Assembly (NCBI RefSeq): GCF_000300075.1
Contig: NC_018677.1
Location: forward strand, 300,001 to 332,000
Length of the DNA stretch: 32,000 nt
Direction of reading: 5' to 3'
DNA from: Candidatus Saccharimonadota bacterium
GTDB lineage: Bacteria > Pseudomonadota > Gammaproteobacteria > Johnevansiales > Johnevansiaceae
A program made the position numbers and the translations under genes. Under the pieces are notes generated by a model that saw only the letters and a list, made by a program, of their open reading frames with translations, ran no database searches and was not told the origin of the DNA. Positions 1-32,000 of this stretch are shown here, piece by piece (within the stretch, counting starts at the first letter, position 1; every line of letters begins with the position of its first letter).

Positions 1-129
1 GTAAAAGATAATAAAATTATTGTTGTTCCTATATTATGTGCATGTTTAAGTATGATGATGAATATTCAATAGTGCTCATATTTAGCTTAAAGGTAAAATG
101 TCGTAACAAATTTTATTTTCTATTATTTT

Positions 130-160
130 GTATCTTGTATCTTGTTTGTTGTTTGTTGTT
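130..160. repeat. Heptamer tandem array (GTATCTT)x2 (GTTTGTT)x2 plus a partial unit
   Basis: Direct reading: gtatctt gtatctt gtttgtt gtttgtt gtt in unbroken 7-nt phase. Confidence 0.85.
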
Positions 161-476
161 AAATTTTTCTATTAGTTAAAGCTTTAGTCATAGGCTAGCA
201 ACATGAGTTAATTTGATTTCTTTAACAATTATGCTTAAAGAACAAGTTAAGAAAGTTGTATTAATTGCTTAATTAGTTAGCTTAGGTATAACAACATTTT
301 AAATAGCACTATTAATAGTAAAATAAATACAGGTTCAACAAAAAAGAAAGTAATAAAAGATTGTTATATAATAATATGTATCTGTGATGCTTAAGTTAAG
401 AAGAAGTTTTGGCATTAGATAAAAACAATAAAGTATAGTGGTAAGAAAAAAAACAAAAGATATAATATGTTACTAT

Positions 477-548
477 GGGTCGTTAGCTCAGTGGTAGAGC
501 AGTTGGCTTTTAACCAATTGGTCGTAGGTTCAAATCCTACACGACCCA
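477..548 (+). tRNA. tRNA-Lys (anticodon UUU)
   Basis: Manual cloverleaf: acceptor gggtcgt/acgaccc, D arm gctc-agtggta-gagc, anticodon stem gttgg/ccaat with loop cTTTTaa, T arm gtagg-ttcaaat-cctac, discriminator a. No encoded CCA. Confidence 0.9.
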
Positions 549-573
549 TTTATATTCATAAAAAAATAATAAC

Positions 574-2040
574 ATGAAAAGAATTCTTATTTATAAAGAA
601 ATCATATCAGATTTAGATACTCCTCTTTCTCTTTATATGAAAGTAGCAAATTATCATTGGACTTTTTTATTAGAATCGATAGAAGGAAAAAAGCAATGGT
701 GTAGATATTCTATAATTGGTTTACGCTGTCATCAAAGAATAGAAATATATAATAATAAAATAAATTTATTTAAAGACAAAATAAAAATTGAAAAAACAAA
801 AAAAATAGATACGTTAGTTTGGCTTTCAAAATATATAAAAACAATAAAAAAAACTATTCTTAAAAAAAATAAAAGCAAAACAATATTGGATGGAGGCTTA
901 GTAGGATATTTGGGCTATGATATAATAAGATTAATTGAACCAACTATTAAAACGTATAAGCAATATAATCCCATTAATACACCTGACATATTTTTGTTAA
1001 GAGCTAATGAACTATTGATAATAGATAAGTATTCAGGCAGATTAACAATCTTAGTAAATGTTAATATATATGATTTAAAAAAAGGTTTAGAACGCATAAA
1101 AATAATATTAAAGAAACTAAGTCTATGTGCAAATTTTAATAAAACAGAATTAGTTACACATTCATTCCAAACACATATCAAACATAAATATACACTTAAA
1201 CCTATATTTTCTAGTTTTAATAAGTTTACTTTTCAAAATTATATTATTAACCTACAAAAATATATTAATTCTGGAGATGTAATGCAATGTGTACCTTCAC
1301 AACGCATTATTATACCGTTTTATTCTCAACCATTTAATCTTTTTCGCGCATTAAGAGTTTTAAACCCATCACCATATATGTTGTTTTTTAATTTTAACGA
1401 TCATTATGTTGTTGGTTCTTCTCCTGAGATTTTGGTAAGAGTAGATAATAAAACAATTACTTTAAGACCTATAGCTGGAACAATTCAAAAACGAAGTGGT
1501 ATACACAATGAAATATTAAAGGATTATAAAGAAGTTTCAGAACATATTATGTTAATTGATTTAGGCCGTAATGATGTAGGAAAAGTTAGTAGTACTGTAA
1601 GAGTTCAAAATCAATTTTTAATAGAAAGATACTCACATGTAAGACATATAGTTTCAACATTAATTGGTATATTAAAACATAAAATAGATCTGATTGATAT
1701 TGTACGCGCTACTTTTCCAGCTGGTACTATTGCTGGTGCACCAAAAATAAGAGCTTTAGAGATTATAAATACACTTGAACCTATTCGACGTGGTATATAT
1801 TCAGGAGCAATAGGTTTTTTATCTTGGAATGGTAATATGAATATAGCTATTGCAATTAGAACAGCAATAGTTAAAAATTATAAACTACATATTCAAGCTG
1901 GTGTAGGAATTATAGAAGAATCTCAATATAAGAAAGAATGGAATGAAATATTAAATAAAAGTAGCGTTATATTGAAAGCCGCACTTATTGCTATAGTTGA
2001 AGAAAAAGGAGACAAAGTTGAGAATATTAATTATAGATAA
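574..2040 (+). CDS. trpE: Anthranilate synthase component I
   Basis: 488-aa ORF with chorismate-binding signatures (LFRALRVLNPSPYMLFF, GTIAGAPKIRALEII..LEPIRRGIYSGAIGF). Followed by trpG-trpD-trpC. Confidence 0.93.
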   Translation: MKRILIYKEIISDLDTPLSLYMKVANYHWTFLLESIEGKKQWCRYSIIGLRCHQRIEIYNNKINLFKDKIKIEKTKKIDTLVWLSKYIKTIKKTILKKNKSKTILDGGLVGYLGYDIIRLIEPTIKTYKQYNPINTPDIFLLRANELLIIDKYSGRLTILVNVNIYDLKKGLERIKIILKKLSLCANFNKTELVTHSFQTHIKHKYTLKPIFSSFNKFTFQNYIINLQKYINSGDVMQCVPSQRIIIPFYSQPFNLFRALRVLNPSPYMLFFNFNDHYVVGSSPEILVRVDNKTITLRPIAGTIQKRSGIHNEILKDYKEVSEHIMLIDLGRNDVGKVSSTVRVQNQFLIERYSHVRHIVSTLIGILKHKIDLIDIVRATFPAGTIAGAPKIRALEIINTLEPIRRGIYSGAIGFLSWNGNMNIAIAIRTAIVKNYKLHIQAGVGIIEESQYKKEWNEILNKSSVILKAALIAIVEEKGDKVENINYR

Positions 2041-2596
2041 TTATGATAGTTTTACATTTAACATTGTACATTATTTTTTTGAATTAGGTGTTGATGTCAA
2101 TATTATTCGTAATAATCTAAATATAAAAAATATAGAAAACGGTTATTTTACTCATTTAGTTATTTCACCAGGACCATGTACTCCGAATAAGGCTGGTTTT
2201 TCCATAGAAGTAATTAAGCATTTTGCAAATAAAATACCTATTTTAGGAATTTGTCTTGGTCATCAAATAATAGGACAAGTTTTTGGATGTAAAATGAGAA
2301 AATCAACACAACTTTTTCATGGAAAAACGTCAAGAATAAAACATATAAATAAAGGTTTATTTAAAGGATTTAAAACTCCTATTTTGATAAATAGATATCA
2401 CTCGTTAATCATTGATAGAAAATATTTGCCTGATAATTTAGAAGTTACAGCTCAAACGGATTGTTACGATATAACGCCAAATGTTATTATGGGCATAAAA
2501 CATAAACAATATAATATTGAAGGGTTACAATTTCATCCAGAATCAATTTTGTCTTTTAAAAGTCATGGATTATTAAAAAACTTTATAAAAAAGTAA
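1997..2596 (+). CDS. trpG: Anthranilate synthase component II (glutamine amidotransferase)
   Basis: Class-I GATase triad context (GICLGHQ nucleophile Cys, LQFHPES). The track start at 1997 is TTG. An in-frame TTG at 2018, preceded by aaggag at 2006-2011, is the more likely start. Either start overlaps the trpE 3' end. Confidence 0.9.
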   Translation: MKKKETKLRILIIDNYDSFTFNIVHYFFELGVDVNIIRNNLNIKNIENGYFTHLVISPGPCTPNKAGFSIEVIKHFANKIPILGICLGHQIIGQVFGCKMRKSTQLFHGKTSRIKHINKGLFKGFKTPILINRYHSLIIDRKYLPDNLEVTAQTDCYDITPNVIMGIKHKQYNIEGLQFHPESILSFKSHGLLKNFIKK

Positions 2597-2601
2597 ATAA
2601 T

Positions 2602-3624
2602 ATGATTAATACAATTTTAAACAAATTAATAAATAAAAGAAATATAAAGTTTAATCAATTTTATAAAATAATGAAGGTTATCAATTTTGGTAAAATAAAA
2701 TCAACACAACTAGCATCTATATTAACAGCATTATCTATCAAAAAAGAAACAAGTGATGAAATCGCAGCAACAGCTAAGGTAATTAATGATTATTATAGTT
2801 TTAATATACACAATAACAAGGTTATGGATTTAGTAGGTACAGGCAGTGATAACTTTAATTTTTTTAATATTTCCACATCTTCAAGTTTTGTTGTTGCTGC
2901 TGCAGGTTCAATAAACGTTGCTAAATTTGGTAGTAAAAGTATTTCATCATATTCAGGTAGTTTAGATTTGCTTAATGTCTTAGGGATAAATTTGTATTTG
3001 AAAAAAAAAGATATTAGAAAGTGTATAAAGCGGTTACAATTAGTTTTTTTAATATCTGAGTTTAAATATAAAAAAAAAATAAGAAAAATAAGAATGGATA
3101 TAAGAATACCTACAATTTTTAATATTGTAGGTCCGTTAACAAATCCTATTAAACCGTTTAAACAATTAGTTGGAGTATATGATAGAAGGTTATTAAATAT
3201 ATTTTCTAAAGTTTTTATGAAATTAGGTAGCAAAAAAACGTTGATAATACACTCAAAAGAAGGTTCAGATGAAATATCTTTAAATAAAGCCACTTATATT
3301 TCTGAATTAAATAATGGTAAAATTATAAACTTCTTAATAAATCCTACAAAATTTTTTTTAAAAAAAAACACATTAGATTTTATACAAATCAAGAGTGTTT
3401 TACAAAGTTTAGATATCGTAATTCATTCTATAAAAGGGCATTTTGGTTTAGCTTTTGAAATGATTTTATTAAATGCTGGAACAGCTTTATATGTCTCTGG
3501 AATAGTCAATAATATTCATAATGGACTTGAATTGTCGAAATATATATTGATTTCTGGAAAAGCATATAAAAAGTTAAAAACAATTGTTTTTTTTACTAAA
3601 TGTTTTAAAAAAGGTATACTGTAA
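2602..3624 (+). CDS. trpD: Anthranilate phosphoribosyltransferase
   Basis: 340-aa ORF colinear with TrpD (VGTGSD..NISTSSSFVVAAAG, GPLTNP, GSDEISL). Position in trp operon. Several canonical motif residues are substituted. Confidence 0.85.
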   Translation: MINTILNKLINKRNIKFNQFYKIMKVINFGKIKSTQLASILTALSIKKETSDEIAATAKVINDYYSFNIHNNKVMDLVGTGSDNFNFFNISTSSSFVVAAAGSINVAKFGSKSISSYSGSLDLLNVLGINLYLKKKDIRKCIKRLQLVFLISEFKYKKKIRKIRMDIRIPTIFNIVGPLTNPIKPFKQLVGVYDRRLLNIFSKVFMKLGSKKTLIIHSKEGSDEISLNKATYISELNNGKIINFLINPTKFFLKKNTLDFIQIKSVLQSLDIVIHSIKGHFGLAFEMILLNAGTALYVSGIVNNIHNGLELSKYILISGKAYKKLKTIVFFTKCFKKGIL

Positions 3625-4518: not shown

Positions 4519-4530
4519 TTTAAGTTTTAT

Positions 4531-4570
4531 AGCTTAGCTTAGCTTAGCTCTGCTCTAATCTAATTTAATT
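4531..4570. repeat. Pentamer array with stepwise changing units
   Basis: agctt agctt agctt agctc tgctc taatc taatt taatt read in one 5-nt phase, lying between convergent tRNA-Asn and tRNA-Met. Confidence 0.85.
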
Positions 4571-4668: not shown

Positions 4669-5603
4669 TTTGTCTATATATGTGTTTTATATATAAAAAA
4701 CCAGTTTGATTGATTTTCAAAAAAAAATATTTGTTAATGAAATTTATATAGGATTAATTTTTATTTCCTTTAATGTTTTTGCTTTGAAGTTCAATTAGGT
4801 TTAATTATTGTTGTATTAGTTTGATAATACTTCTTCTAGTATTTAATTTTTGCTTTCTTTTGTTTTATGTTATGAATTTAAAAAAAAGTATTGTTTGATT
4901 TTTGTTTAATGTTATTTATATTTAACAGCTTGTTGTTTTGCTAAAATATTAGTTTGTAAGTTGTTAATTAATTATGTTTTTTTATTTTGTTTAAAAAAAA
5001 TTATTTATATGTTGTTTGCTTATTACTATTGTTTTGTGTTTAACTTTACAGCATTAATCTTTTAAAGGTTATATGGTATAACTTATTTTTTTAAAGTTTT
5101 TGTTACAATAGGTAGGATGGCATTCTGTATTTATGAACTTATGATAGGTGTAAATTTTCGTGTTTTGTATAGTTTTATATTAGATTTTTTATTGTTAGTT
5201 AATAGCTTTTGCTGTCATATTGTTAAGTGTTTATGCTGTTAGAGTATATATTATTTGATATGTGTAATATTTTATTTACTTAATACTTGTTAGGTTGTTT
5301 TTACTAGATAGGTTTAATTTTTTAGTTGCTATGTTGTTAAACTTTGCTTTTGTTTTTTTGTTCAAACTGGTAATTTGTTAATTTTTTAGTTTATATACTT
5401 TATTTATTAGACTATCCATTTTTGTATTTGTTTTATAAAAATAGTATTGTGTATGTTTGTTATTATTTTAACTTCATTTAGTTTTTGTATTTGATTTTAA
5501 AGAAGGTATGTGTTATTTAAAGGATTGATTAATGGGTTATGTACTTTATGTTGTGCTTAATGTATAATCAGTTATGTGCTTGATGTAAGTATTTGTGTTA
5601 TTA

Positions 5604-5678
5604 TGTGGACTGTGGACTGTGGACTGTGGATTGTGCAATGAATTGGTGTTTGGTGTTTGGTGTTTGCAGTTTGCAGTT
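5604..5678. repeat. Heptamer arrays (TGTGGAC)x3 TGTGGAT TGTGCAA, 5-nt gap, (TGGTGTT)x3 (TGCAGTT)x2
   Basis: Direct reading of tandem units in the 4669-6037 spacer. Confidence 0.9.
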
Positions 5679-6037
5679 TATGTTTTAGCTGGTTGATGTT
5701 AGGAGTTCTGTTAAAGGTTATGTATTTTGTTAAAAATTTGTTAGATGTATTTTGTATTGCTGTTATTTAAATAGTTATACGGTAATTAAATGTTGTTATT
5801 AAATAAAAATCTGTTAGATGTTAACTTGTATTTTTAGATGTTTGGTGTAAGATGATTGTTTTATAGTGATTGGTAAAGTTAGATAAAATAAGTTGTATGA
5901 AGCTTTGTAAAAAAATATAAAAGGTTGCTTAAAAAAGGCTGTATATATGTAAGATTATGCTTTATAAAGAGGCAGTTTCGTTTCATTGGTTTTATGAAAT
6001 ATGTTTTATAAGAATAAGTTTGATTAGTTGATTCTAT

Positions 6038-6618: not shown

Positions 6619-7566
6619 TTAATTAAACATTTCACTTATTGATTCTTCATTATTCACTCTTCGAATAGCTTCTGCTATAATACTAGCAACAGATATTTGT
6701 TTTATTTTTTTACTACTCATAGCATTTGTTGATAAAGGAATAGTGTCTGTAACTATTAATTTGTCTAAAACTGAGTTGTTTATAATATTTAAAGCATTAC
6801 CTGACAAAATAGCATGAGTAATATATGCAAAAACATATTTAGCTCCTTGTTTTTTTAATGATTCAGCTGCTTTGCACAAAGTACTAGCAGTGTCCACGAT
6901 ATCATCTATTAAAATACACGTCCGTTCTTTAATATCTCCAATAATATTCATTACTTGTGTCTGATTTTTTTTTGGACGACGTTTGTCTATAATTGATAAA
7001 TCTGCATTTATTTTTTTAGCTAATGCTCGAGCACGTACAACACCCCCAATATCGGGGGATACTATTACAAGATTTTTATATTTTTGAGTTTCTATATCTG
7101 TTATAAACACAGGAGATCCATAGATATTATCAACAGGTACATCAAAAAAACCTTGTATTTGATCAGCATGTAAATCCATAGTCATAACACGGTTTACACC
7201 AGCTTTAACAATCATGTCTGCTATAACTTTTGCAGAAATAGGAACCCTGGTAGTTCTTATTCTCCTATCTTGCCGTGAATACCCTAAGTATGGAATTACA
7301 GCTGTAATTCTTGTAGCTGAAGCTCTACGTAAAGCATCTATAATTAAAATTAATTCTATTAAATTATTATTAGTAGGTACACAAGTTGATTGTATTATAA
7401 ATATATCTTTACCTCTTACATTTTCTTCTATTTCAACAGAAATTTCACCATCACTAAATTTATTAACTGTCGATCTACCTAGATTTGTTTTTAAACAAAT
7501 AGAAATTTGTTTTGCTAATTCAATATTGGAATTTCCAGTAAATAACATTAACTTAGAAAGAATCAT
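6619..7566 (-). CDS. prs: Ribose-phosphate pyrophosphokinase (PRPP synthetase)
   Basis: [33 protein letters not shown], and PRPP-binding loop [13 protein letters not shown]. Confidence 0.93.
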
Positions 7567-7623
7567 ATTATAGTTACCTATAACAAATTTATTATATATT
7601 TAAATATAGTATAATATATACTT

Positions 7624-8748
7624 TTGAATTCATATATTTATAGGTATTTAATTTTGATAAAAACCAATTTAATACATTTTTTTTATAAACTTGAAAAAAA
7701 GTTTTATTGTTTATCTATTTTACTTTCTAAATATGAAATTAGTTATAAACAGGATAAATATATAAAATATGCACAGGATTATTCACGATTGGCAAAGTTA
7801 GTTAGCTTGTGGAAACTTTATCAAAATTTAGAAATAGAACTTAGTTATAATAACAAACTATATAATGATTCTGATAATGATTTAGAATTACGTAGTTTAA
7901 TCACTGAAGAAATTAAGCTTATTAAAAGTAACTTATTTAAATTTCATTTTCAAATACAACAAACTTTAATAACTTATTCTAATAAAGAAGATAAAAACGG
8001 TATATTTTTGGAAATACGTGCTGGAACAGGGGGTTCAGAAGCTGCGCTTTTTGCAGGTGATTTATTTCGAATGTACTCAAAGTATGCTGAAAAACATAAT
8101 TGTAATTTTGAAATAATTAGTTTTAACTCAGGTGAATATGGGGGCTTTAAAGAACTAATTTTAAGAATAGAAGGATATGGTATATATGGAAAATTTAAAT
8201 TTGAATCAGGTACACATCGAGTACAAAGAATACCTGACACAGAATCTATGGGAAGAATTCATACGTCTGCTTGTACGGTGGTTGTCATGCCAAACTTACA
8301 TAAGAAAGTACATAATATAAAAATAAATACAAAGGAATTAAGAATTGACACTTACAGATCAAGTGGTGCAGGCGGGCAACATGTAAACACTACTGATTCC
8401 GCTGTAAGAATAACGCATTTGCCTACAAAGATCGTTGTTGAATGTCAAAGTGAACGCTCTCAACATAGTAATAAAGCAAAAGCTATTGAACTATTAAAAG
8501 CAAAAATTAAACAAAAAAAGAAAGATGAAGTTAAAATTAAACAAACAACATTAAGAAAATCATTAATTGGTTCTGGCGATAGATCAGAAAGAATTCGTAC
8601 TTACAATTTTGCACAAGGGCGCGTAACAGATCATAGAATAAAGTTAACAATTTATGATTTAAATAATATTCTTTCTGGTAATTTAGATGAAATAATAATT
8701 CCATTGATTAATCAGTTAAAATCAGAACAACTAATGGATATTAGTTGA
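7624..8748 (+). CDS. prfA: Peptide chain release factor 1
   Basis: GGQ motif (SGAGGQHVNTTDSAVRITHLPT) and an RF1-type PxT tripeptide region (QRIPDTESMGRIHTSACTV). The start is uncertain: TTG at 7624, with another in-frame TTG at 7651. Confidence 0.9.
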   Translation: MNSYIYRYLILIKTNLIHFFYKLEKKFYCLSILLSKYEISYKQDKYIKYAQDYSRLAKLVSLWKLYQNLEIELSYNNKLYNDSDNDLELRSLITEEIKLIKSNLFKFHFQIQQTLITYSNKEDKNGIFLEIRAGTGGSEAALFAGDLFRMYSKYAEKHNCNFEIISFNSGEYGGFKELILRIEGYGIYGKFKFESGTHRVQRIPDTESMGRIHTSACTVVVMPNLHKKVHNIKINTKELRIDTYRSSGAGGQHVNTTDSAVRITHLPTKIVVECQSERSQHSNKAKAIELLKAKIKQKKKDEVKIKQTTLRKSLIGSGDRSERIRTYNFAQGRVTDHRIKLTIYDLNNILSGNLDEIIIPLINQLKSEQLMDIS

Positions 8749-17256: not shown

Positions 17257-18315
17257 ATGACACATAAAAGTTTGTTTTTTAATAAAGCAATTGATTATTT
17301 GATAACTAATAAAGATGGTTTATATATTGATTGTACTTTGGGTTTGGGTGGCCATAGTAAACAAATTTTAAATAGATTGTCTATAAATGGTCTGTTAATT
17401 GCACTAGATAATGACTTAAATACAAAAACATTGGTTAAAAATTTAGAATTCTATTTAGATAAAAGGTTTAGTTTTATCAATATCAATTTTAAGTATTTAG
17501 AAATCATAGCCAAAAAAAAACACTTGTTTGGAATTGTTTCAGGCATCTTATTAGATTTAGGAATTTCTACATATCAAATTAAGGATTATAAAAGAGGCTT
17601 TAGTTTTTTTATAAATGGTCCTTTGGATATGAGAATAAACAATACTTTCGGTATCACCGCTTGTTGCCTTTTAAATCATTATAAATTTAAACAAATCTTT
17701 AAGATATTTAAAACATATGGAGAAGATGAACAGTTGTATAGACTAACAGTAGAGATTTGTAATCGTAGACATCACTTTCCGTTTAAAATGACCTTGGAAT
17801 TATCAAATTTGATAAAAACTTTAAAGTTTACAAACTATCATATAAAACACCAATTAATTAAAACAAAACCTAAAATACAAAAAACATACATTATACATCA
17901 TAAATCTATTAAAATAAAACAAAAATTCATCAAACATTCTAAATCAATTAACACCAAACACATTATAATAAAAGAAAATACAACAAAAAACAAAATAATA
18001 AAAACCAATAACAATAGCATAAATAAAAAAAAGAAAAAACACATACATCCATCAACTAAAATTTTTCAAGCAATACGTAGTTACATAAATAATGAAATAC
18101 AAAACTTGGAAATAGTCATTATTACATCTTTAAAACTTTTAAAAACAAACAAAAAGTTAATAATTATTACATTTAATTCTTTAGAATCACAAATAGTAAA
18201 TAAAGTACTAAAAACAACTTTAAATAAAGTAAATAAAATCTATCCTTCAATTGAAGAGGTATTTTATAACAATAGTTCACGTTGTTCTGCTATATTTATT
18301 ATTCAAAAACTTTAA
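17257..18315 (+). CDS. rsmH: 16S rRNA (cytosine1402-N4)-methyltransferase, with a low-complexity internal expansion
   Basis: DCTLGLGGHS, LLDLGISTYQI, RGFSF..GPLDMRI, HPSTKIFQAIR, FNSLESQIV motifs in RsmH order. Confidence 0.85.
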   Translation: MTHKSLFFNKAIDYLITNKDGLYIDCTLGLGGHSKQILNRLSINGLLIALDNDLNTKTLVKNLEFYLDKRFSFININFKYLEIIAKKKHLFGIVSGILLDLGISTYQIKDYKRGFSFFINGPLDMRINNTFGITACCLLNHYKFKQIFKIFKTYGEDEQLYRLTVEICNRRHHFPFKMTLELSNLIKTLKFTNYHIKHQLIKTKPKIQKTYIIHHKSIKIKQKFIKHSKSINTKHIIIKENTTKNKIIKTNNNSINKKKKKHIHPSTKIFQAIRSYINNEIQNLEIVIITSLKLLKTNKKLIIITFNSLESQIVNKVLKTTLNKVNKIYPSIEEVFYNNSSRCSAIFIIQKL

Positions 18316-18377
18316 ACTTTTTATTTATCTTGAACTTGTATTCTTTTCTATTAGTTTTAAACTCTTTTGGTTCTTTC

Positions 18378-18398
18378 TTTTTTTTTTTTTTTTTTTTT
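18378..18398. repeat. Homopolymer T(21)
   Basis: Counted directly. Lies about 60 nt downstream of the rsmH stop. Confidence 0.95.
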
Positions 18399-18820
18399 AC
18401 TCTTTTTTATGCTTTTTTTGTTATATCTAATAATTGATTTTATGTTTTTTTATTTATGTGTTGATATTTTTTTTTGCTTTGTTTGCTGTGTTTTGTGATT
18501 TGCGTTTGTTTTATGTGTTTTTTATTCATTTTATTTGTTGTTTTTAGCCTGTTTAGATTTTGTTATTGCTTTTTGTGTTTTAGTTTTGATGTTATTTGTT
18601 AGTTTAGATGTTATGTCAATTCAAAAGTATGTTGTATAGTTTAAAAAGAAGTAAAATGTGCTTATGTAAGTTGTTTAGTTTAAAAGCTTTTAGATGTTGT
18701 TTAGAGTATAGCGATTATGTTTTGATTTTGGTGTTTTGTTGTTAAATTGGTTTGTGTTTAGTTATTATAATAAAAATATGTTTGTTGTTAATTGAAAGTT
18801 TTTGCTGTTAGTTAATTTTT

Positions 18821-18876
18821 TAGCTTTTAGCTTTTAGCTTTTAGCTTTTAGATGTTAGATGTTAGATGTTAGATGT
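18821..18876. repeat. Heptamer array (TAGCTTT)x4 (TAGATGT)x4
   Basis: Eight units in a single unbroken 7-nt phase. Confidence 0.95.
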
Positions 18877-19585
18877 TGTATTAAAGATGTAAGCGTTTAT
18901 TATATTTGAGTCTTGATATTTGTTATTGTATTTTTGTATTTTTTTTAATTTATTGGTTTGGTTTGTTTAAGATGTTTTAAAAACTTAATTGTTTTAAAAG
19001 TATGTTGTATTGGTGTATAATAAATGTTCACTAGTTAGTTGTATGTTTGTTGTTTATCTTTAAGGTTAAATAAAAAAAGTTGTAAGTTAGATGAAGGTTG
19101 TTTAATGCACGTTGTAGTTTGTATGTTAGAGGTTTAAAATGTTTGCTTTTATTAGTTGTTAGTTGTTATTTATTATTTATTAGATGTTGTTTGTTAAAGC
19201 AAAGATTTTTGACTTTGTATGTAAACTAAATAAGATTGTTGTTTAAGATCAAAAAAGTTGTATAACATTAAATAAGTTTAAATGTAAGAAGATTAGAAAA
19301 TAGAGGGTAGTAGTTGTTATTGTTAAGAGGTTAGTTATTATTTTTTAAGAGGTTTAAGGTTGCTTTAAAGATTAAAGTTAGGTTTGAGGTTTATTTATTA
19401 GAGGTTAGAAGTTTATTAATTGTTTAGTTAGTAAAGAAGTTTGTGTTATACTAGAAAGTTTAAAAGTTATGGTTTTGTTAGTTGATTGGTAGCTTAGTTG
19501 ATGGTTAGAGGAAGGTAGGTTTATTAGTTGGTAATGGTTAGTTATAAAAAAAGTTAGTGGGTTAGTTGTTGTTTAAATAGGTTAG

Positions 19586-19613
19586 TGTTTTGTGTTTTGT
19601 GGTTTGTGGTTTG
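19586..19613. repeat. Heptamer array (GTGTTTT)x2 (GTGGTTT)x2
   Basis: Direct reading. Confidence 0.85.
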
Positions 19614-19647
19614 TGTTAAGTAGTTGCTTTTTAGAGGATAGAGTTTT

Positions 19648-19766
19648 GTTGATTGTTGATTGTTGATTGTTGATTGTTGTTTGTTAGTTGAGGGTTGAGG
19701 GTTGAGGGTTGTAGGTTGTAGGTTGTAGGTTGTAGGTTGTTAGTTGTTAGTTGTTAGTTGTGGTTT
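19648..19766. repeat. 17-unit phase-locked heptamer array
   Basis: (GTTGATT)x4 GTTGTTT GTTAGTT (GAGGGTT)x3 (GTAGGTT)x4 (GTTAGTT)x3 GTGGTTT. Unit starts all fall at 19648+7k. Confidence 0.95.
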
Positions 19767-19844
19767 AGGTTTGATGGTTAAAAGGTCTTAACAAATTATC
19801 TTGTATAGTGGAAGACGATAGTAGAGGTTTAGGTTTGATGGTTA
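19762..19844. repeat. 19-nt direct repeat ggtttaggtttgatggtta x2 (period 64)
   Basis: Identical copies at 19762-19780 and 19826-19844. A second dispersed pair aaaaaaagttagtgggttagttgtt lies near 19547 and 19851. Confidence 0.85.
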
Positions 19845-20352
19845 GTAAAAAAAAAGTTAGTGGGTTAGTTGTTTAGTTAAAAAGAGGTTGGTGTTTTGTG
19901 GTTGTAAAATATAAAATAGTTAATTATTAGTTGTTAGATAGAAGAAAGGTTGTGTAGTAGTATGTGTTGTTGTAAAAAAGTGAAAAACATGTAAAAGAAG
20001 AAAACAATAGAAAAAAGTATATAAGAAAATACTTAAAAGATGAAAAAAAAGAACGGTAATAAATCAGAAAAGAATATATGTATAACATATAAAAAAAGAA
20101 AAATAGAACATAGATTAGAACATGGTATATAGGAGATGGCATAAGAATAAACAGATTACAGAAACAGAAAGGAATAAAAATGTAAACGTAAACAGGAATC
20201 ATGAATAGTTAGTTAATAGGAAGATATGGGTATGTTATTACTGAATTAAAAATAAAGAACATTTAAAGAAACATATAAAAATAAATAAGTAAAAATAAAC
20301 ATACACCATAAAACAAAAAAAAACAAACAAAACAGAAAAAAGATAATAAAAT

Positions 20353-22902
20353 ATGAAGACAAAAATAAAAAAAAACATATATAATGCAACCCCAGCAATA
20401 ACACAATACCTTAGGATAAAAAACCATTATCACAAAATTTTGTTAATGTATCGTATGGGTGATTTTTATGAATTTCTTTTTGAAGATGCGCACACAGCCT
20501 CTGCTTTATTAAATATTCAATTAACTAGCAAAGGAAAATATAATAATAAACGTATTCCTATGGCAGGAATACCTTGTCATAGTTTAAGAACATATTTAAA
20601 ACGTATTATCACAGCAGGAATATCGGTTGCTATTTGTGAACAAATAAAAACAAAAAAAACAAAGAAAAGTAAATTGCTTGAACGAAAAGTAATTCGAGTA
20701 ATTACACCAGGCACTTTATATGAAGACAGTTTATTAGATGAAAGTAAAGATAATTTGATTATATCAATAATTCAAAAAAATAATAAATGGGGTATTTCTT
20801 GGCTAGAATTCACAACAGGTGCTTTTGGTGTTTTGGAAGTTGATAATATACACGATTTACGTTTGGAATTAGATCGATTAAACCCTGTTGAGCTCTTAAT
20901 TTCTAGATTACATAAAAAATTACCTAAACTTCCCGTACACAAATCAATAATTAAACCTATAAGTGATATTAATTTCGATTATAACAATGCTTGTAAAGTT
21001 TTGTTTAAAAAACTAAATATAAAAAATATAAATAAAAAACTTAATGCTGGTGTTTCTGCAGCTGGTGCTATAATACAATATATAAATAATAATAAAATTT
21101 ATAATTTAGCACATATTAACCATTTAATTTTTGAAAATAAAAAAGATAAGTTAAAAATAGATCGTATTACTAAAAAACATTTAGAACTTGATGTAAATGT
21201 TAATGGCAAACAAGAAAATACTTTGTTTAGTGTTTTAAATAATACAATGACACATATGGGGAGTCGTTTATTAAAAAAATGGATTAATAACCCTATTACT
21301 AATTATGATTTAGTTTTTTCTAGACAAAAAGGCGTTGAGATTGTTTTAACAAATAATTTCATAGATATTTTACAAAAATATATAAAAAAAATTGGAGATA
21401 TAGAACGTATTGTTACGAGAATATCTTTAAAAACAGCAAAGCCCTTAGATTTAATCAAATTTAAAATTGCTTTAAACGTTTTTCCTAAACTTAAAACTTT
21501 GTTAAAGGGACTATTAATAGTAAATAAAAACAGCAAGTCTATACTAAATTATATTCATAAAGAGATTTTTACTTTTCCCAATATTGCTTTACTTTTAGAT
21601 GAAGCATTAGTCGATAATCCTCCTAACTCCTTTAGATATGGATATGTAATAAAGTCACATTTTAATAAAAACTTAGATAAGTTGCGTAAAATCTATACTA
21701 ATTCAGAAAAGTTTATAAAAACGTTTGAAAACAAAGAAAAATTACGTACCGGAATAATAAAATTAAAAGTTACTTATAATAAGCTTCATGGTTTGTTTAT
21801 AGAAATACCTAAAGGTCGTAAACATAAATACAAAATTCCTAAAAATTATATAAGAACAAAAACATTAAAAAATTCAGAAAGATTTTATACTAGTGAATTA
21901 AAGTACTTTGAAAAACGTTTAATAGAATCAAAAGAAAAGTCAATAAAATATGAAAAAAGTATTTTTAAAAAATTAATAAAGGTTCTTGTAGGTAATATAC
22001 CTTATTTTATAAAAACATCAAAATCACTAGCCACGTTGGATGTTATTACTACTTTTGCTGAAAGAGCTTTAACACTGAATTATTGCAAACCAATAATAAA
22101 TAAAAACAAAATAGGCATAAAAATCATGGAGGGTAGACATCCTGTAATTGAATCTACAACTAACCATCACTTTGTACCTAATAATTTATTTTTAAATCAT
22201 AATAAAAGTATACACATTATTACAGGACCGAACATGGGTGGAAAGTCTACTTTTATCAGACAAATTGCCATTATTGTTTTATTAACATATATTGGAAGTT
22301 ATGTACCTGCTAAATATGCTGAAATCGGTCCTATTGATCAAATTTTTACCAGAATAGGTGGTTATGATGATTTAAGTGCAGGAAAATCAACTTTTATGAT
22401 TGAAATGCATGAAACTGCTAAAATATTAAACACCGCAACTTTTAAAAGTTTAGTACTAATGGATGAAATAGGAAGAGGAACTAATCCTACAGAGGGTTTA
22501 TGTCTCGCTTGGGCATGTTTAGAAAGAATAATACAAATTAAAGCTTTAACGTTGTTTTCTACTCATTATTTTAGTTTAACTCAAATAGCAAAAAAATTTA
22601 AACAAATAACAAACTTACACTTTAGTGCTTCCATCAAATCTAATAAAGTTAGTTATATTTACAATATACAAAAAGGTGCTACAAACAATAGTTACAGTTC
22701 GTCGGTTGCTAGTTTGGCTAATATAGCACAAGGCGTTATAAATAAATCCAACAATCTTATAAAGCACTTTCAAGATCATCAAAAAAGCCTAAATAAAAGA
22801 CATACGTTAATGAAATATATAAAATCTTTTAAATATAAAGACTTAACACGTTATCTAAAATTTATAAAAAGTTTTTTCAAAAACCTAAAAGATATGTTTT
22901 AA
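20353..22902 (+). CDS. mutS: DNA mismatch repair protein MutS (apparently intact)
   Basis: 849 aa. Mismatch-binding GDFYE, Walker A GPNMGGKSTFIRQ, Walker B LVLMDEIGRGT, STHY. No frame disruption. Confidence 0.93.
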   Translation: MKTKIKKNIYNATPAITQYLRIKNHYHKILLMYRMGDFYEFLFEDAHTASALLNIQLTSKGKYNNKRIPMAGIPCHSLRTYLKRIITAGISVAICEQIKTKKTKKSKLLERKVIRVITPGTLYEDSLLDESKDNLIISIIQKNNKWGISWLEFTTGAFGVLEVDNIHDLRLELDRLNPVELLISRLHKKLPKLPVHKSIIKPISDINFDYNNACKVLFKKLNIKNINKKLNAGVSAAGAIIQYINNNKIYNLAHINHLIFENKKDKLKIDRITKKHLELDVNVNGKQENTLFSVLNNTMTHMGSRLLKKWINNPITNYDLVFSRQKGVEIVLTNNFIDILQKYIKKIGDIERIVTRISLKTAKPLDLIKFKIALNVFPKLKTLLKGLLIVNKNSKSILNYIHKEIFTFPNIALLLDEALVDNPPNSFRYGYVIKSHFNKNLDKLRKIYTNSEKFIKTFENKEKLRTGIIKLKVTYNKLHGLFIEIPKGRKHKYKIPKNYIRTKTLKNSERFYTSELKYFEKRLIESKEKSIKYEKSIFKKLIKVLVGNIPYFIKTSKSLATLDVITTFAERALTLNYCKPIINKNKIGIKIMEGRHPVIESTTNHHFVPNNLFLNHNKSIHIITGPNMGGKSTFIRQIAIIVLLTYIGSYVPAKYAEIGPIDQIFTRIGGYDDLSAGKSTFMIEMHETAKILNTATFKSLVLMDEIGRGTNPTEGLCLAWACLERIIQIKALTLFSTHYFSLTQIAKKFKQITNLHFSASIKSNKVSYIYNIQKGATNNSYSSSVASLANIAQGVINKSNNLIKHFQDHQKSLNKRHTLMKYIKSFKYKDLTRYLKFIKSFFKNLKDMF

Positions 22903-23294
22903 CAACTTTGTCTTATAAACTTTCCTTATTTTACAAATAACTCTTTACCACAACTAACCACTATAGAATTTACAGTTACTATTTTTTTACAATTCTATCA
23001 TCAATTTCTTAAACAACAACCTTCTTTTATAAAAACATCTACTTCAATATTCTTTTATATGTCATACTTCTATATACCCCATATATATCCTATCATACCA
23101 ATACTTCTTACACACAGCATTTAAACTTAACAACTAACTTTTTATAAGTATAACAAATTACATTAAACATTAATCAACCTTCTAAAGCAATAACCATTTA
23201 AATTAATGACAAATAAAAAAATCAATGTTTAAAACATACCATCAACCTTTTTAACTTTTAATATAAAAGCACAAACCTTTTCCATTTTCCTTTT

Positions 23295-23347
23295 CCCTTT
23301 CCCTTTCCCTTTCCCTTTCCCTTTCCCTTTCCCTTCCCCTTCCCCTT
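23295..23347. repeat. Hexamer array (CCCTTT)x6, CCCTT, (CCCCTT)x2
   Basis: Direct reading. The complement is (AAAGGG)n with nine G-runs of 3 or more. Confidence 0.95.
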
Positions 23348-23405
23348 AATCCCCTTTCAACCTTTTTATTTTAACCAAAAACCTTTTACCCTTTATTTTT
23401 TTTCC

Positions 23406-23601
23406 AACCTACAACCTACAACCTACTACCTACTACCTACAACCTACAACCACTAAACACTTACCAACAACCAACAACCAACTACCAACTACCAACTACC
23501 AACTACCAACAACCTACAACCTACAACCAACAACCAACTACCAACTACCTACAACCTACAACCTACAACCTACAACCACTAAACACTAAACACTAAACAC
23601 C
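23406..23601. repeat. 28-unit phase-locked heptamer array (AACCTAC / TACCTAC / AACCAAC / TACCAAC / AAACACT family)
   Basis: Units read at 23406+7k with no phase break across 196 nt. AACCTAC is the reverse complement of the GTAGGTT units at 19711-19738. Confidence 0.93.
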
Positions 23602-23694
23602 ATTCAAACCTTACTACTAACATCAACCCATACTATCAGCAAACAATTACCAACCAACACTTACTTCCAACAACTCCTTACATTTACCCATCTT

Positions 23695-23751
23695 CTTTTT
23701 TAACTAACATAATCAAGTTTAATCAAACTCTTTTTTAACTAACATAATCAA
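23695..23751. repeat. 22-nt tandem duplication cttttttaactaacataatcaa (period 35)
   Basis: Identical copies at 23695-23716 and 23730-23751. Confidence 0.9.
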
Positions 23752-23886
23752 TAACTTAATTTTAACTATAAAACTACATATTTTTTTGTTTTGTTTTCTA
23801 ACAACTATTTACCTAACAAACAACCTCTATCTTTCTACTAATTTAACAAAATCTAATAACTTAACAACTAAACCAATAATTTTTAA

Positions 23887-23935
23887 CTACCAGCTACCAG
23901 CTACCAGCTACCATCAACCATCAACCATCAACCAT
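23887..23935. repeat. Heptamer array (CTACCAG)x3 CTACCAT (CAACCAT)x3
   Basis: Direct reading, single phase. Confidence 0.93.
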
Positions 23936-24066
23936 CTAATTTAATACTACCAACATCTAACATTTAATAACTTCTACTTATTTCATATTATATATATATA
24001 CAACTTCTAACATCTAACATCTAATTTTAGCAACATCTAATAACTATTTACTACAAAACTACCAAC

Positions 24067-24129
24067 TATCTTTCATATAACTACTATACTATATACTACT
24101 ATTATCTTTCATATAACTACTATACTATA
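24067..24129. repeat. 27-nt tandem duplication tatctttcatataactactatactata (period 36)
   Basis: Identical copies at 24067-24093 and 24103-24129. Confidence 0.9.
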
Positions 24130-24311
24130 ATGTATCAATATAAATCAGTTTATATCTTAAATAAAATACAACAAATAATGAAGTAACTAATTCAAATACA
24201 AAGTTATAACATATAAATACTATATTTAAAATAATATAACTTGGTGCTTTAAACTAATAACTACTGTATTACATATTACAAAACATATAAATACAAAGTA
24301 CAAACAAATTA

Positions 24312-24484
24312 CTAACAACTAACAACTAACAACTAACCTAACACCTAACACCTAACACCTCAAACCTAACAACTCTAACCTAACACCTCAAACCTCAAAC
24401 CTCAAACCTCAAACCTAACAACTCTAACCTCTAACCTCTAACCTCTAACCTAACACCTAACACCTAACAACTCTAACCTCTAAC
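24312..24484. repeat. Heptamer arrays: (CTAACAA)x3, one 5-nt phase slip, then 21 phase-locked units of CTAACAC / CTCAAAC / CTAACAA / CTCTAAC
   Basis: All 21 units from 24338 to 24484 were read individually. Confidence 0.95.
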
Positions 24485-24494
24485 TGATAACAAT

Positions 24495-24526
<32 letters not shown>

Positions 24527-24562
24527 ATAACAACTTTAAAGCAAAACTCAAACATCTATTAA

Positions 24563-24590
24563 CTAATAACTAACAACTAACAACTAACAA
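24563..24590. repeat. Heptamer array CTAATAA (CTAACAA)x3
   Basis: Direct reading. Confidence 0.9.
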
Positions 24591-24945
24591 TTTACAAATA
24601 CAAACTATTAAACAAAAAAGCATCAATTAACTAACAACTTTTAATCTATTTTTTTTAATCTAACCTCTAATAACAAACATCAAAAACTTTAACTCAAAAA
24701 TCAACAATACAAAACAGCAAACATAACCATCAACAATACAAACTCTAAACTTTAAACAAAAATATAACAAATAACACAAAACTGAAAAATACTAGTAGAA
24801 AACAACGAAAAAAGAAAACCTAAAAAGCAATAACAAAACACCTAACTGCAACTACAAAACTAAAAAACAGCTAACAAACAACAAACAACACATAATATAA
24901 AGAGAGATAAACCCAAATATTAGATATAACAACAAAAATATTTGT

Positions 24946-25059
24946 AATAATATACGACCAGTATTAGCGGTAATAAAGTCAGTACCAGCGGTAATATACG
25001 ACCAGTATTAGCGGTAATAAAGCTCCATAGACCAGTATTAGCGGTAATAAAGTCAGTAA
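24946..25059. repeat. Three and a half direct copies of a 22-31 nt unit (core accagtattagcggtaataaag)
   Basis: Core at 24957-24978, 25001-25022 and 25031-25052. A shortened copy accagcggtaata at 24984-24996. Copies 1 and 2 share 31 nt and copies 1 and 3 share 29 nt. Confidence 0.9.
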
Positions 25060-25479
25060 TATATGGAGTTGTTTTTTTGAGCCAATTTAAATGAAGAATC
25101 TGTACATAAATAATCAGGTAAGTCAAAAAAAGTAAAAATGTAAGTTTGTCCATAATAGTATTGGTTGACACATTCTATAAAAATACATTAATAAACCACT
25201 TGAAAACGATGTAAATGCAAAATCTCTATCACTTACTGCATCGAAAAATTTTTATAAGATCAAAACATAGTAGCTTTTTAATTAAGGCACAAATTCAAGT
25301 TGAATATGTAGTTACAGCAGATCATATCCTAAAGGTAATATATTTATTATTTTCCGCCAATCTAAAAATACGTAAATAAGCTCTAAATAGCTTTTAATTT
25401 TAAGCTAATACATGATGGCAAAAAGTAATTGTGTGCTGTGATGATTGTAACTGATTTTATCCAGTTAATATAGTATAAG

Positions 25480-25514
25480 AATCACTAATCACTAATAGCT
25501 AATAGCTAATAGCT
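25480..25514. repeat. Heptamer array (AATCACT)x2 (AATAGCT)x3
   Basis: Direct reading. Confidence 0.9.
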
Positions 25515-25922
25515 ATTTTTCTTAAAGCTGGTCTTAACTTTAGTTAGTTAATGCATCTATTTTTTTTCTTAAATTAAGATGAATAGCTGTAGAAAACAAT
25601 CACATATATGCATTTTTTTTTCAAAGCTTTCTATTCTTTATTATTTTGCTAAACCACTTTATATTCTTTCTTAATACAACTTTCAATTACTTTTTATTCC
25701 TTTTTTTATACTTTTACTTTCTTTTCAACAACTAACATTTTTCTTATTGTTGTATTTTTTATATTTACGTTGATATCATACCAATAAATACGAAAATAAA
25801 ACTTATAGAATTTAACTACGAAATTATCAGTATAAAAATTAAAACAGCTACGTCTAATCAGGTTATTTTAACGTGTTCATTTTAAATTTTGCTATATGCT
25901 ATTAAGTTTATATTATATATAA

Positions 25923-30545: not shown

Positions 30546-31543
30546 TACTTATCTCTTTTTTCCATATTTTTCTTAATAACATACCTATTAGAAACTTTTT
30601 CTCTCTAATATTGAGTTTACAATACATACTGCTTGACCTTCTTTTACTCTAACTTTCTTTTACCAATATTTTTTTTCATACACACAACCCTTTTTCCTAC
30701 TTCTACAACTAGTCTTTCTTCTAACAAATACACTAACAATATTCAACCATTTTTATACCCCTACAACCACCACCACCAATACCAACACTTATTTTTACAT
30801 CCTTTTACCGTTTATATACCCCTTTTACACCAATACCAACCCTTAACTATTACCTCCTAACCGCTAACCGCAAACACCAACCACTTAACATATATTCTTT
30901 TTAACCAAAACTATTAACAACTATCCTCAAACCTATACCTATACGCTTTTTACAATACAAGCATTACAACCATCTTTGAATCCTATTCTTTTACCACGAA
31001 CTAAACAGCTTTAAGACCTATTAACTAAACATATATTGTACCGCCTACTTTTCCTCATACAGCATATTACCTTGTTTTTTTTGTTTTACATTATACAGCC
31101 CTTACCACGAACTAACTAGCTAACAAAAATATAATAACTAATAACATACAGCTTAGTTTAACATCATACATTTCCTCTTAAACACTTCAATTAAAGCACA
31201 TAACAAATTAGCCACAATTAAACAGAAATCAAATACTATAAAACACAAATCTAATACTATAAAACAAGCACATCTGCTAACAACAAACCCACAACACATT
31301 TAATCCATTGATCATAAATATAGAAGCATAAACAACAAAACATCAAACCAAAAATCACACAACCCATAAATAAAAACATTATTATCAACAAAACAACATT
31401 TAGCCATTACAATTTTCCTATTTTTTTTTAATAATACATAAACAAACTAACAAAATACTAAAGACATAAACAACACAAAAACCTTTTTTATTGTCCTTTT
31501 TCTTTCATTTAACACCTTTTTCAGCAAACACAATTTCTTTTGC

Positions 31544-31634
31544 CTAACAGCTAACAGCTAACAGCTAACAGCAAACAGCAAACAGCTAACAGCTAACAGC
31601 TAACAACTAACAACTAACAACTAACAACTAACAA
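31544..31634. repeat. 13-unit phase-locked heptamer array (CTAACAG)x4 (CAAACAG)x2 (CTAACAG)x3 (CTAACAA)x4
   Basis: Units read at 31544+7k without a phase break. Confidence 0.95.
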
Positions 31635-32000
31635 GCAAATGTTTTTACATACAATATCTTCTTTTAGTATATATATTCTTTTTTTTATATAACTCCTTTC
31701 TGCTTACTGTAAACATTTATCAGCATACACATAACATCTTAATATCTTCCCATTAACACCTCTTAACATTTAGATCTATATCTTAACCTTTACTACTTTT
31801 TTTTCACTTACTATATAACCTTCTACTTACTTTTCTATAATACTTTAGCCTTACTGCCTATACCTTACAATCTTTAGCATTCCACCATTCTCTTATACTT
31901 TTATATAACCTTTCACCTTTTACCTTTATGAACCTACCTTTAGCCTTATCTTCCTGTTACCACAGAACCTGCTACAGCAAATACACACCACTTTTTTATT

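Follow-up and report, generated by a model that had tools for sequence, protein, structure and literature searches.

Blocks of heptamer repeats upstream of mutS in a whitefly endosymbiont genome and the question of why the period is 7

Why does a bacterial spacer carry seventeen heptamers in one register, and why is the unit a heptamer? The question is raised by an array at positions 19648-19766 on the plus strand of the window, by which we mean the entire stretch of 32,000 nucleotides that was analysed. The array is located 587 nt upstream of mutS on the mutS sense strand, is hypervariable among strains and reads GTTGATT (four times), GTTGTTT, GTTAGTT, GAGGGTT (three times), GTAGGTT (four times), GTTAGTT (three times) and GTGGTTT. 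The initial annotation had described these units as perfectly in phase, and this description is exact: the 7-nt register starts at 19648 and is kept over 119 nt by all 17 heptamers without an indel. The unit sequence, however, changes six times and not five times as had been counted; successive blocks are one to three substitutions apart. An upstream array at 19585-19617 (plus strand; GTGTTTT twice, GTGGTTT twice) shares the register of the focal array. Nine further arrays had been named as heptameric, at 130, 5604, 18821, 19586, 23406, 23887, 24312, 25480 and 31544, and Tandem Repeats Finder confirmed period 7 for all nine. It had then been argued that slippage favours units of 1-4 nt and that a preference for 7 hints at a specific mechanistic step size or at a templating structure. 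The premise is too simple. According to the survey of Mrazek et al. (2007), as it is quoted in later work (PMC4679880, PMC4692102), heptamers are the most abundant class of long simple sequence repeats (SSRs) in many bacterial genomes, and the quoted proposal is that they dominate since about 7 nt may be the contact length of the DNA polymerase.

The window has a GC content of about 25% and codes for a bacterial class A RNase P RNA, four tRNAs, trpEGDC, his genes, thrB, carotenoid genes (crtI, crtB, lycopene cyclase), gatAB, prfA, ribosomal proteins and mutS. Complete identity was found between its MutS and TrpE and the proteins of CP007563, CP016343 and CP016327 (genomes of about 350-360 kb) and of JGI whitefly records, and the gene order is the same. 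This identity, together with a gene set that fits, identifies the window as DNA of Candidatus Portiera aleyrodidarum of Bemisia tabaci. [quoted passage not shown] In the same account only dnaE, dnaB and mutS are left of the replication and repair genes, dnaN, dnaQ, dnaX, holA, holB, mutL, ruvC and ssb being among the losses. The genome-wide analysis of period that the initial annotation recommended had thus been published before, and it confirmed the 7-bp spike. The arrays of the window agree with the published microsatellites in organism, in the 7-bp peak, in their location in long intergenic regions, in the excess of 7-bp indels and in their absence from compact lineages, and we found no difference in the feature itself. 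The period-7 arrays are therefore already known since 2013, and their description adds nothing alone. A cause of the value 7 is offered neither by Sloan & Moran (2013; PMC3673631) nor by Santos-Garcia et al. (2015, 2020). The 2013 study is also, as far as we found, without the strand asymmetry, the block-wise expansion of seeds at single loci and the contrast to Portiera of Singhiella that are considered below.

All long arrays of the window are confined to its five spacers. When these five spacers (each at least 300 nt, together 8356 nt) were subjected to autocorrelation analysis, a value of 0.437 was obtained at lag 7 as compared to 0.329 in dinucleotide shuffles (z = 23.6), and lags 14, 21 and 28 stood out as harmonics (z = 15.2, 14.1 and 9.3); the genes of the window showed period 3 only in the same test. 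Lag 7 was the top lag in each of the four long spacers. Perfect arrays with at least three copies of a unit of at least 4 nt had period 7 in 24 of 27 cases (671 nt), periods 4, 5 and 6 occurred once each, and periods 8-15 did not occur. After masking of every detectable array (21% of the spacer bases) lag 7 was still the strongest lag (z = 7.3), and a period-7 comb extends over about 15 units. The spacers are therefore largely a decayed or incipient heptamer lattice. The unit sequences of the arrays are unrelated, as exemplified by TGTGGAC at 5604 and AATCACT/AATAGCT at 25480. Identical units were common to different spacers, in both orientations, in 6 cases versus about 1.6 expected (P = 0.004-0.009), a result of modest significance in which neighbouring arrays are not independent. 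The trinucleotide TAG is present in 12 of the 24 distinct units (4.9 expected, P = 0.0008).

The focal array belongs to the rsmH-mutS spacer (18316-20352), which is G+T-rich on the plus strand (G 21%, C 4%), has lag 7 as its top lag, a lattice of about 15 units and a higher-order duplication at a distance of about 300 nt. It also contains, on the plus strand, arrays of TTTTAGC (4.9 copies) and TTAGATG (4.3 copies) at 18818-18877 and a degenerate array of TTAGTTG-like heptamers with 76% matches at 19148-19196. The mutS gene (20353-22902, plus strand) has repeat-filled rearrangement breakpoints on both flanks. It is followed by the skewed part of the mutS-tRNA-Thr spacer (22903-24900), which is A+C-rich on the plus strand and hence G+T-rich on the minus strand, with long heptamer arrays at 23405-23600, 23887-23938 and 24311-24607. 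A block-wise array of AATCACT (twice) and AATAGCT (three times) is situated in unskewed DNA at 25480-25515 (plus strand). The spacer from tRNA-Met to rplY (4669-6037) is G+T-rich on the plus strand, carries heptamer arrays at 5604-5679 and is orthologous to a period-5 spacer of Singhiella Portiera, and the spacer upstream of hisA (30546-32000, assigned to the minus strand) is A+C-rich on the plus strand and contains CTAACAG in 12.9 copies at 31544-31633. Short arrays of TATCTTG and TTGTTTG are present upstream of tRNA-Lys (124-160, plus strand). Arrays of the same kind thus fill unrelated spacers in both orientations.

Repeats of other sizes were seen as well. Among the very few perfect arrays that are not heptameric is TAGCT in four copies between tRNA-Asn and tRNA-Met (4530-4549). 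A hexamer array of about ten copies (TTTCCC/CCTTTT, 23276-23347) is the sole long non-heptamer array with a unit of at least 4 nt in the window, and its minus strand has the window's sole three-tetrad G4-type motif. Short-unit repeats are also present in this genome, as is evident from an (AAC)12.7 trinucleotide array within the heptamer lattice (24489-24526) and from a run of 25 T directly downstream of rsmH (18374-18398). The spacers also grow by larger duplications: in the rsmH-mutS spacer, 19543-19604 corresponds to 19846-19903 through segments of 28 nt and 21 nt that are about 300 nt apart and 96% and 86% identical, and a 26-nt segment is duplicated at a distance of 64 nt (19755-19780 and 19819-19844).

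The origin of the blocks became apparent from the comparison of strains. In five B. tabaci Portiera genomes the focal locus was present in five states, different in every strain. The genomes L002, L003 and L005 have a short allele of 39 nt (GTTGATT twice, GTTT, GTTAGTT, GAGGTTT, GATGGTT), in which the seeds GTTGATT, GTTAGTT and GAGGTT stand side by side with one or two copies each. In L001 and L004, GTTGATT is expanded to 4-5 copies, the trimer GTT to 4 and GTTAGTT to 4-5, and the hexamers GAGGTT and AGGTTT are also expanded to 3-4 copies each; the window has its own expansions, namely those of GAGGGTT (three copies), GTAGGTT (four) and GTTAGTT (three). The arrays gain and lose whole units quickly and have different alleles in every strain examined, and it is the independent expansion of different short seeds at one locus, strain by strain, that produces the block pattern. 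The blocks of the focal array are thus lineage-specific expansions of seeds that are adjacent in the short allele. In the initial annotation the array had been taken as a record of the type 'mutate, then amplify'. The gain and loss of whole units and the local amplification of variant units are in agreement with this idea, but a linear chronology is not, since the seeds are already adjacent in the 39-nt allele. The perfect phase of the window is partly owed to the trimer GTT, which is present twice (3 + 4 = 7); it occurs once or four times in the other strains, and the register shifts there.

Other sites behave similarly. At the 19585 site L002 has a block-wise heptamer array of 74 nt, which is absent in its 99% identical sister L003. 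Multiples of 7 account for 10 of the 24 indels between the closest strain pairs (P = 0.001). Pairwise gap lengths peak at 7 and 14 nt, and gaps of 1, 5 and 6 nt occur frequently as well; the counts for 2, 3 and 4 nt (1, 0 and 4) and for 5, 6 and 7 nt (30, 17 and 33) are, however, not independent of each other, and alignments within repeats are ambiguous. The focal arrays fit SSRs or VNTRs of the slippage type, with copies arranged head to tail and copy numbers that differ among close relatives by whole units. As to hallmarks of a mobile element, the spacer contains no inverted repeats and no open reading frame with a family match. No two of the B. tabaci Portiera genomes examined have the same arrays, which makes the arrays potential strain markers. 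A lattice block of 866 nt (23604-24469) is present in the window, L001 and L004 and absent from L002 and L003; it represents either a large lineage-specific expansion or a deletion.

The suggested templating structure would require that hairpins or G-quadruplexes of the repeat strand set the register and drive the expansion. The GAGGGTT and GTAGGTT blocks do provide two-tetrad G4-like motifs (19692-19715). A hairpin template, however, was rejected: the minimum free energy of the focal array is 0 kcal/mol on both strands, the same value as in every shuffle. The skewed spacers are structure-poor in general (-2.5 kcal/mol per 120 nt versus -6.1 in genes) but do not differ in this respect from dinucleotide shuffles (z around 0), and an avoidance of structure beyond composition, as could be imagined as an effect of the loss of ssb, was discarded for the same reason. 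G tracts are too few for G-quadruplexes as a general cause, since a GGG unit was found in only one of 34 arrays and half of the arrays lack GG; the G-rich strand of the rsmH-mutS spacer has no G3-type motifs, and inverted repeats were not found in this spacer. Watson-Crick structure as a template is effectively refuted by these data, and we consider structure-templated expansion of any kind scarcely credible.

It could also be assumed that the array is a selected functional element, i.e. a protein-binding array, a regulatory element of mutS or a non-coding RNA. Its position on the sense strand of mutS, 587 nt upstream of the gene, and the enrichment of TAG in the units would be in line with such a role, and selection of long spacers and repeats for resilience has been speculated upon (PMC7821994). 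Against this, three strains have a locus of just 39 nt, its state differs from strain to strain, and arrays of the same kind occur in unrelated spacers and in both orientations. Promoter-like sites are at the level of shuffles (14 versus 11.2 ± 3.1) and none of them overlaps the array; terminators were not found, and Rfam gave no match even at E<=1. A regulatory or RNA element was rejected on these grounds, and a selected function of the array is very unlikely. With regard to phase-variable (contingency) loci, in which the copy number of a repeat within a coding region or promoter spacer switches a gene, the observations are the distance of 587 nt to mutS and the lack of overlap with promoter-like sites.

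A second property of the spacers is their strong strand asymmetry, with 17-21% G versus 4-5% C on one strand or the reverse, and T exceeds A on the G-rich strand. At the fourfold degenerate sites of the flanking genes G amounts to about 5% and C to about 6%, without a consistent skew on either gene strand, so that the G (or C) content of one spacer strand is three to four times the fourfold-site level (17-25% versus about 5% in all genes of the window). Fourfold sites show neither the asymmetry nor the excess of G:C pairs; neither property therefore represents a mutational equilibrium, and a mutational strand bias as equilibrium cause of the G+T skew can be rejected. The spacers are therefore not neutral DNA decaying at equilibrium; amplification keeps regenerating them. 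The spacer 'junk' is more GC-rich than the neutral equilibrium of this AT-biased genome. Two other sources of the spacers or their skew were considered and dismissed. A skew set by the direction of transcription agrees with the flanking genes in only two of the four long spacers. Nor was support found for the spacers, which sit at rearrangement breakpoints, as decayed pseudogenes of the ancestral mutS neighbours: alaS, lysC, lipA, ruvC and aspS, which are the neighbours in PeMo, gave no tblastn match below E = 0.1 in any spacer.

Portiera lineages of other whiteflies offer a comparison that bears directly on the value 7. Loci were obtained via orthologues of MutS and TrpE, two each from the Portiera of Singhiella simplex (CACTJB010000002.1; L017 and L018) and from an intermediate lineage (ENA ERZ27294174, SRR10613586; L013 and L019). 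In Singhiella Portiera, 62 perfect pentamer arrays were found versus one heptamer array in a sample of five spacers from two loci on one contig. The z value at lag 5 was 21.6 when pooled over the spacers of L017, nearly all of which is the 3.1-kb spacer upstream of mutS; three further spacers had values of 20.0, 9.4 and 25.0. The pentamer arrays, among them AACAT (4.6 copies), TAACT (3.4), ACATA (5.6), AACAC (4.6), CAGAA (6.4) and AAAAC (6.4), are located at 4797-5135 and 6869-10000 of L017 and at 411-3021, 6635-8386 and 13861-15672 of L018; the ATGTT/TGTTA necklace alone contributes 17 arrays in three spacers. These spacers are also A+C/G+T-asymmetric (e.g. A 54%, C 24%, G 3%). The genome paper gives only three tandem repeats, and a 5-bp unit is absent from its main text (PMC7821994). 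According to a summary statement in the same paper, Singhiella Portiera has lost six replication and repair genes, probably already in the common ancestor with Bemisia.

The intermediate lineage has a MutS and a TrpE with 76% and 89% identity to those of B. tabaci Portiera, shares with the latter the derived rsmH-mutS and lepA-(lepB)-groEL adjacencies, and has skewed spacers. It shows weak and mixed 4-, 5- and 6-mers, including AACA tetramer arrays, and no dominant period (L013 12539-14252; L019 13874-14834 and 2830-3745), and is therefore of use for dating the heptamer expansion. In the compact Portiera genomes PeMo (L011) and L016 the gene order is ancestral, the spacers are short and period-7 arrays are missing. 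B. tabaci, Singhiella and intermediate Portiera have orthologous trpC-rplY spacers, which are G+T-rich on the same strand in all three (GC skew +0.54, +0.71 and +0.54), with a period of 7 in B. tabaci, of 5 in Singhiella and a weak and mixed one in the intermediate lineage.

These data can be confronted with a fixed polymerase step, according to which about 7 nt of primer-template are held at the active site and a bare DnaE, being non-processive, re-anneals preferentially with a shift of 7 nt. Such a step would explain period 7 in 24 of the 27 perfect arrays and the use of unrelated heptamers, also in unskewed DNA (TGTGGAC at 5604; AATCACT/AATAGCT at 25480). It also accords with the loss of clamp and proofreading subunits (PMC3673631) and with the abundance of heptamers in many bacteria, for which we rely on the quoted survey. 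The 'specific mechanistic step size' of the initial annotation nevertheless finds no support in this form: at the focal locus itself the expanded units of sister strains include hexamers (GAGGTT, AGGTTT) and a trimer, and the Singhiella lineage, with a common loss of replication and repair genes, uses period 5 and is practically free of heptamers, an orthologous spacer included. Indels of 5 and 6 nt are frequent as well, and the intermediate lineage has no dominant period. A period of 7 versus 5 in orthologous spacers of the same polarity after a common gene loss amounts to a direct natural test of the polymerase-footprint idea. The contrast between Singhiella and B. tabaci is a modest new point. 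It speaks for lineage history rather than for a fixed step size, which we regard as unlikely although by no means negligible.

Alternatively, the retained MutS could act as a filter that suppresses loops of 1-4 nt, so that units of at least 5 nt proliferate and the winning value is a matter of history. The mismatch repair of E. coli deals with loops of no more than about 4 nt. The dominant periods are 7 and 5 and never 2-4, and gaps of 2, 3 and 4 nt are rare relative to those of 5, 6 and 7 nt (in the non-independent counts given above). All B. tabaci Portiera genomes that were retrieved code for one and the same MutS protein (100% identity), despite flanking spacers that differ by 2-4% and by many indels, which implies strong purifying selection on MutS. 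On the other hand, we know of no MutS-only repair pathway. The (AAC)12.7 array and the T25 run exist in the window, AACA tetramers form arrays in the intermediate lineage, and the scarcity of 2-4 nt indels may simply mirror the scarcity of arrays with such units. As mutL has been lost (PMC3673631), MutS is left without a known partner. We consider a filter by MutS combined with a founder effect improbable.

The reading that we prefer, with a probability of roughly 60%, is that the value 7 is no fixed mechanical quantum but the period of a lattice that is specific to the lineage and reinforces itself. The engine would be replication slippage and/or unequal exchange between sister copies, as we infer from the published gene losses and the whole-unit polymorphism; slippage, unequal exchange and gene conversion are not separated from each other by sequence alone. 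It would operate in a crippled replisome that, according to the literature, has lost the clamp, the clamp loader, the proofreading subunit, SSB and MutL. The spacers of each lineage presumably carry a cryptic lattice, in which a frayed 3' end or a misaligned copy would find its best microhomology one lattice period away. Each new gain or loss would then reinforce the lattice period; such a founder effect would feed back positively on itself, and gene conversion between spacers may contribute to it. The period would have become 7 in the lineage of B. tabaci and 5 in that of Singhiella. In both cases the spacers are G+T/A+C-asymmetric, and the polarity of this asymmetry does not differ among the three lineages. 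A lattice of this kind is consistent with lag 7 as the strongest lag after masking, with units common to different spacers, with whole-unit turnover and with lineage-specific periods. Two observations speak against it: the block-wise heptamer array at 25480-25515 is located in unskewed DNA outside the lattice, which would not be expected from a founder effect alone, and the position of heptamers as the commonest long SSR class in many unrelated bacteria (again as quoted from the survey) raises the prior for an intrinsic 7.

It is also conceivable that the slippage quantum differs between the genomically unstable Portiera lineages (7 in B. tabaci, 5 in Singhiella, none dominant in the intermediate lineage) and is set by a lineage-specific property of the DnaE/DnaB replisome or of replication factors supplied by the host, and that the asymmetry marks junk DNA that survives without SSB; the asymmetric spacers are probably ancestral in this view, their polarity being common to all three lineages. 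We consider this quite unlikely. If it were true, Portiera would represent a natural experiment on the unit length of bacterial microsatellites, that is, on the 'why heptamers' question attributed to Mrazek et al. (2007) in the papers that quote them.

The arrays can be placed among known systems. Singhiella simplex Portiera (CACTJB01; PMC7821994) shares long spacers, block-wise short arrays, asymmetry, the polarity of an orthologous spacer and gene loss and differs in its period of 5. Heptamer SSRs of other bacteria, such as GGGAATC in Xanthomonas and GGGGA(T/C)T in Nostoc among the cyanobacterial heptanucleotide repeats (PMC4692102) or TAACTGA in Beggiatoaceae (PMC4679880), are likewise intergenic tandem heptamers with rapid variation of length and sequence between close relatives; they raise the same question of why 7, and the same answer, a polymerase footprint, has been proposed. 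They differ in that each genome has one or a few specific units (the G4-forming GGGNATC, or TAACTGA), whereas Portiera has dozens of variant units in blocks, mostly without G4 capacity, an extreme G+T/A+C asymmetry and the loss of most of the replisome. With a GGG unit in only one of 34 arrays, the arrays of the window differ from the GGGNATC-type G4 repeats, which are characterised by G tracts of at least three residues, repeated at least four times. Other heptanucleotide units of cyanobacteria are CCCCAGT, TTGGTCA and CAACAGT. None of these three is among the window's 24 distinct units, and TAACTGA is absent from them in any rotation and on either strand. Eukaryotic satellite and minisatellite DNA resembles the arrays in its adjoining blocks of identical variant units, in lineage-specific repeat families and in turnover by slippage or unequal exchange; the units of Portiera are far shorter, however, and are found in a bacterial endosymbiont genome of about 357 kb without meiotic recombination.

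Two regions next to the repeat-rich spacers deserve a remark. The part of the mutS-tRNA-Thr spacer that adjoins tRNA-Thr (24901-25922) is of ordinary composition without skew, and its conservation among strains amounts to 98-99.9%. An open reading frame of 83 amino acids without a Pfam match is located in this part, inside which a 23-nt repeat (TAATATACGACCAGTATTAGCGG) is present in 3.2 copies (24948-25019); the region may be a gene remnant or an unannotated element. In rsmH (17257-18315), the methyltransferase domain matches residues 2-202 only. The middle and C-terminal part of the product is rich in lysine and isoleucine and is encoded in part by an in-frame 39-nt tandem repeat of 2.1 copies (17871-18008), and the length of the product is 352 amino acids in the window, 354 in L004 and 385 in the intermediate lineage.
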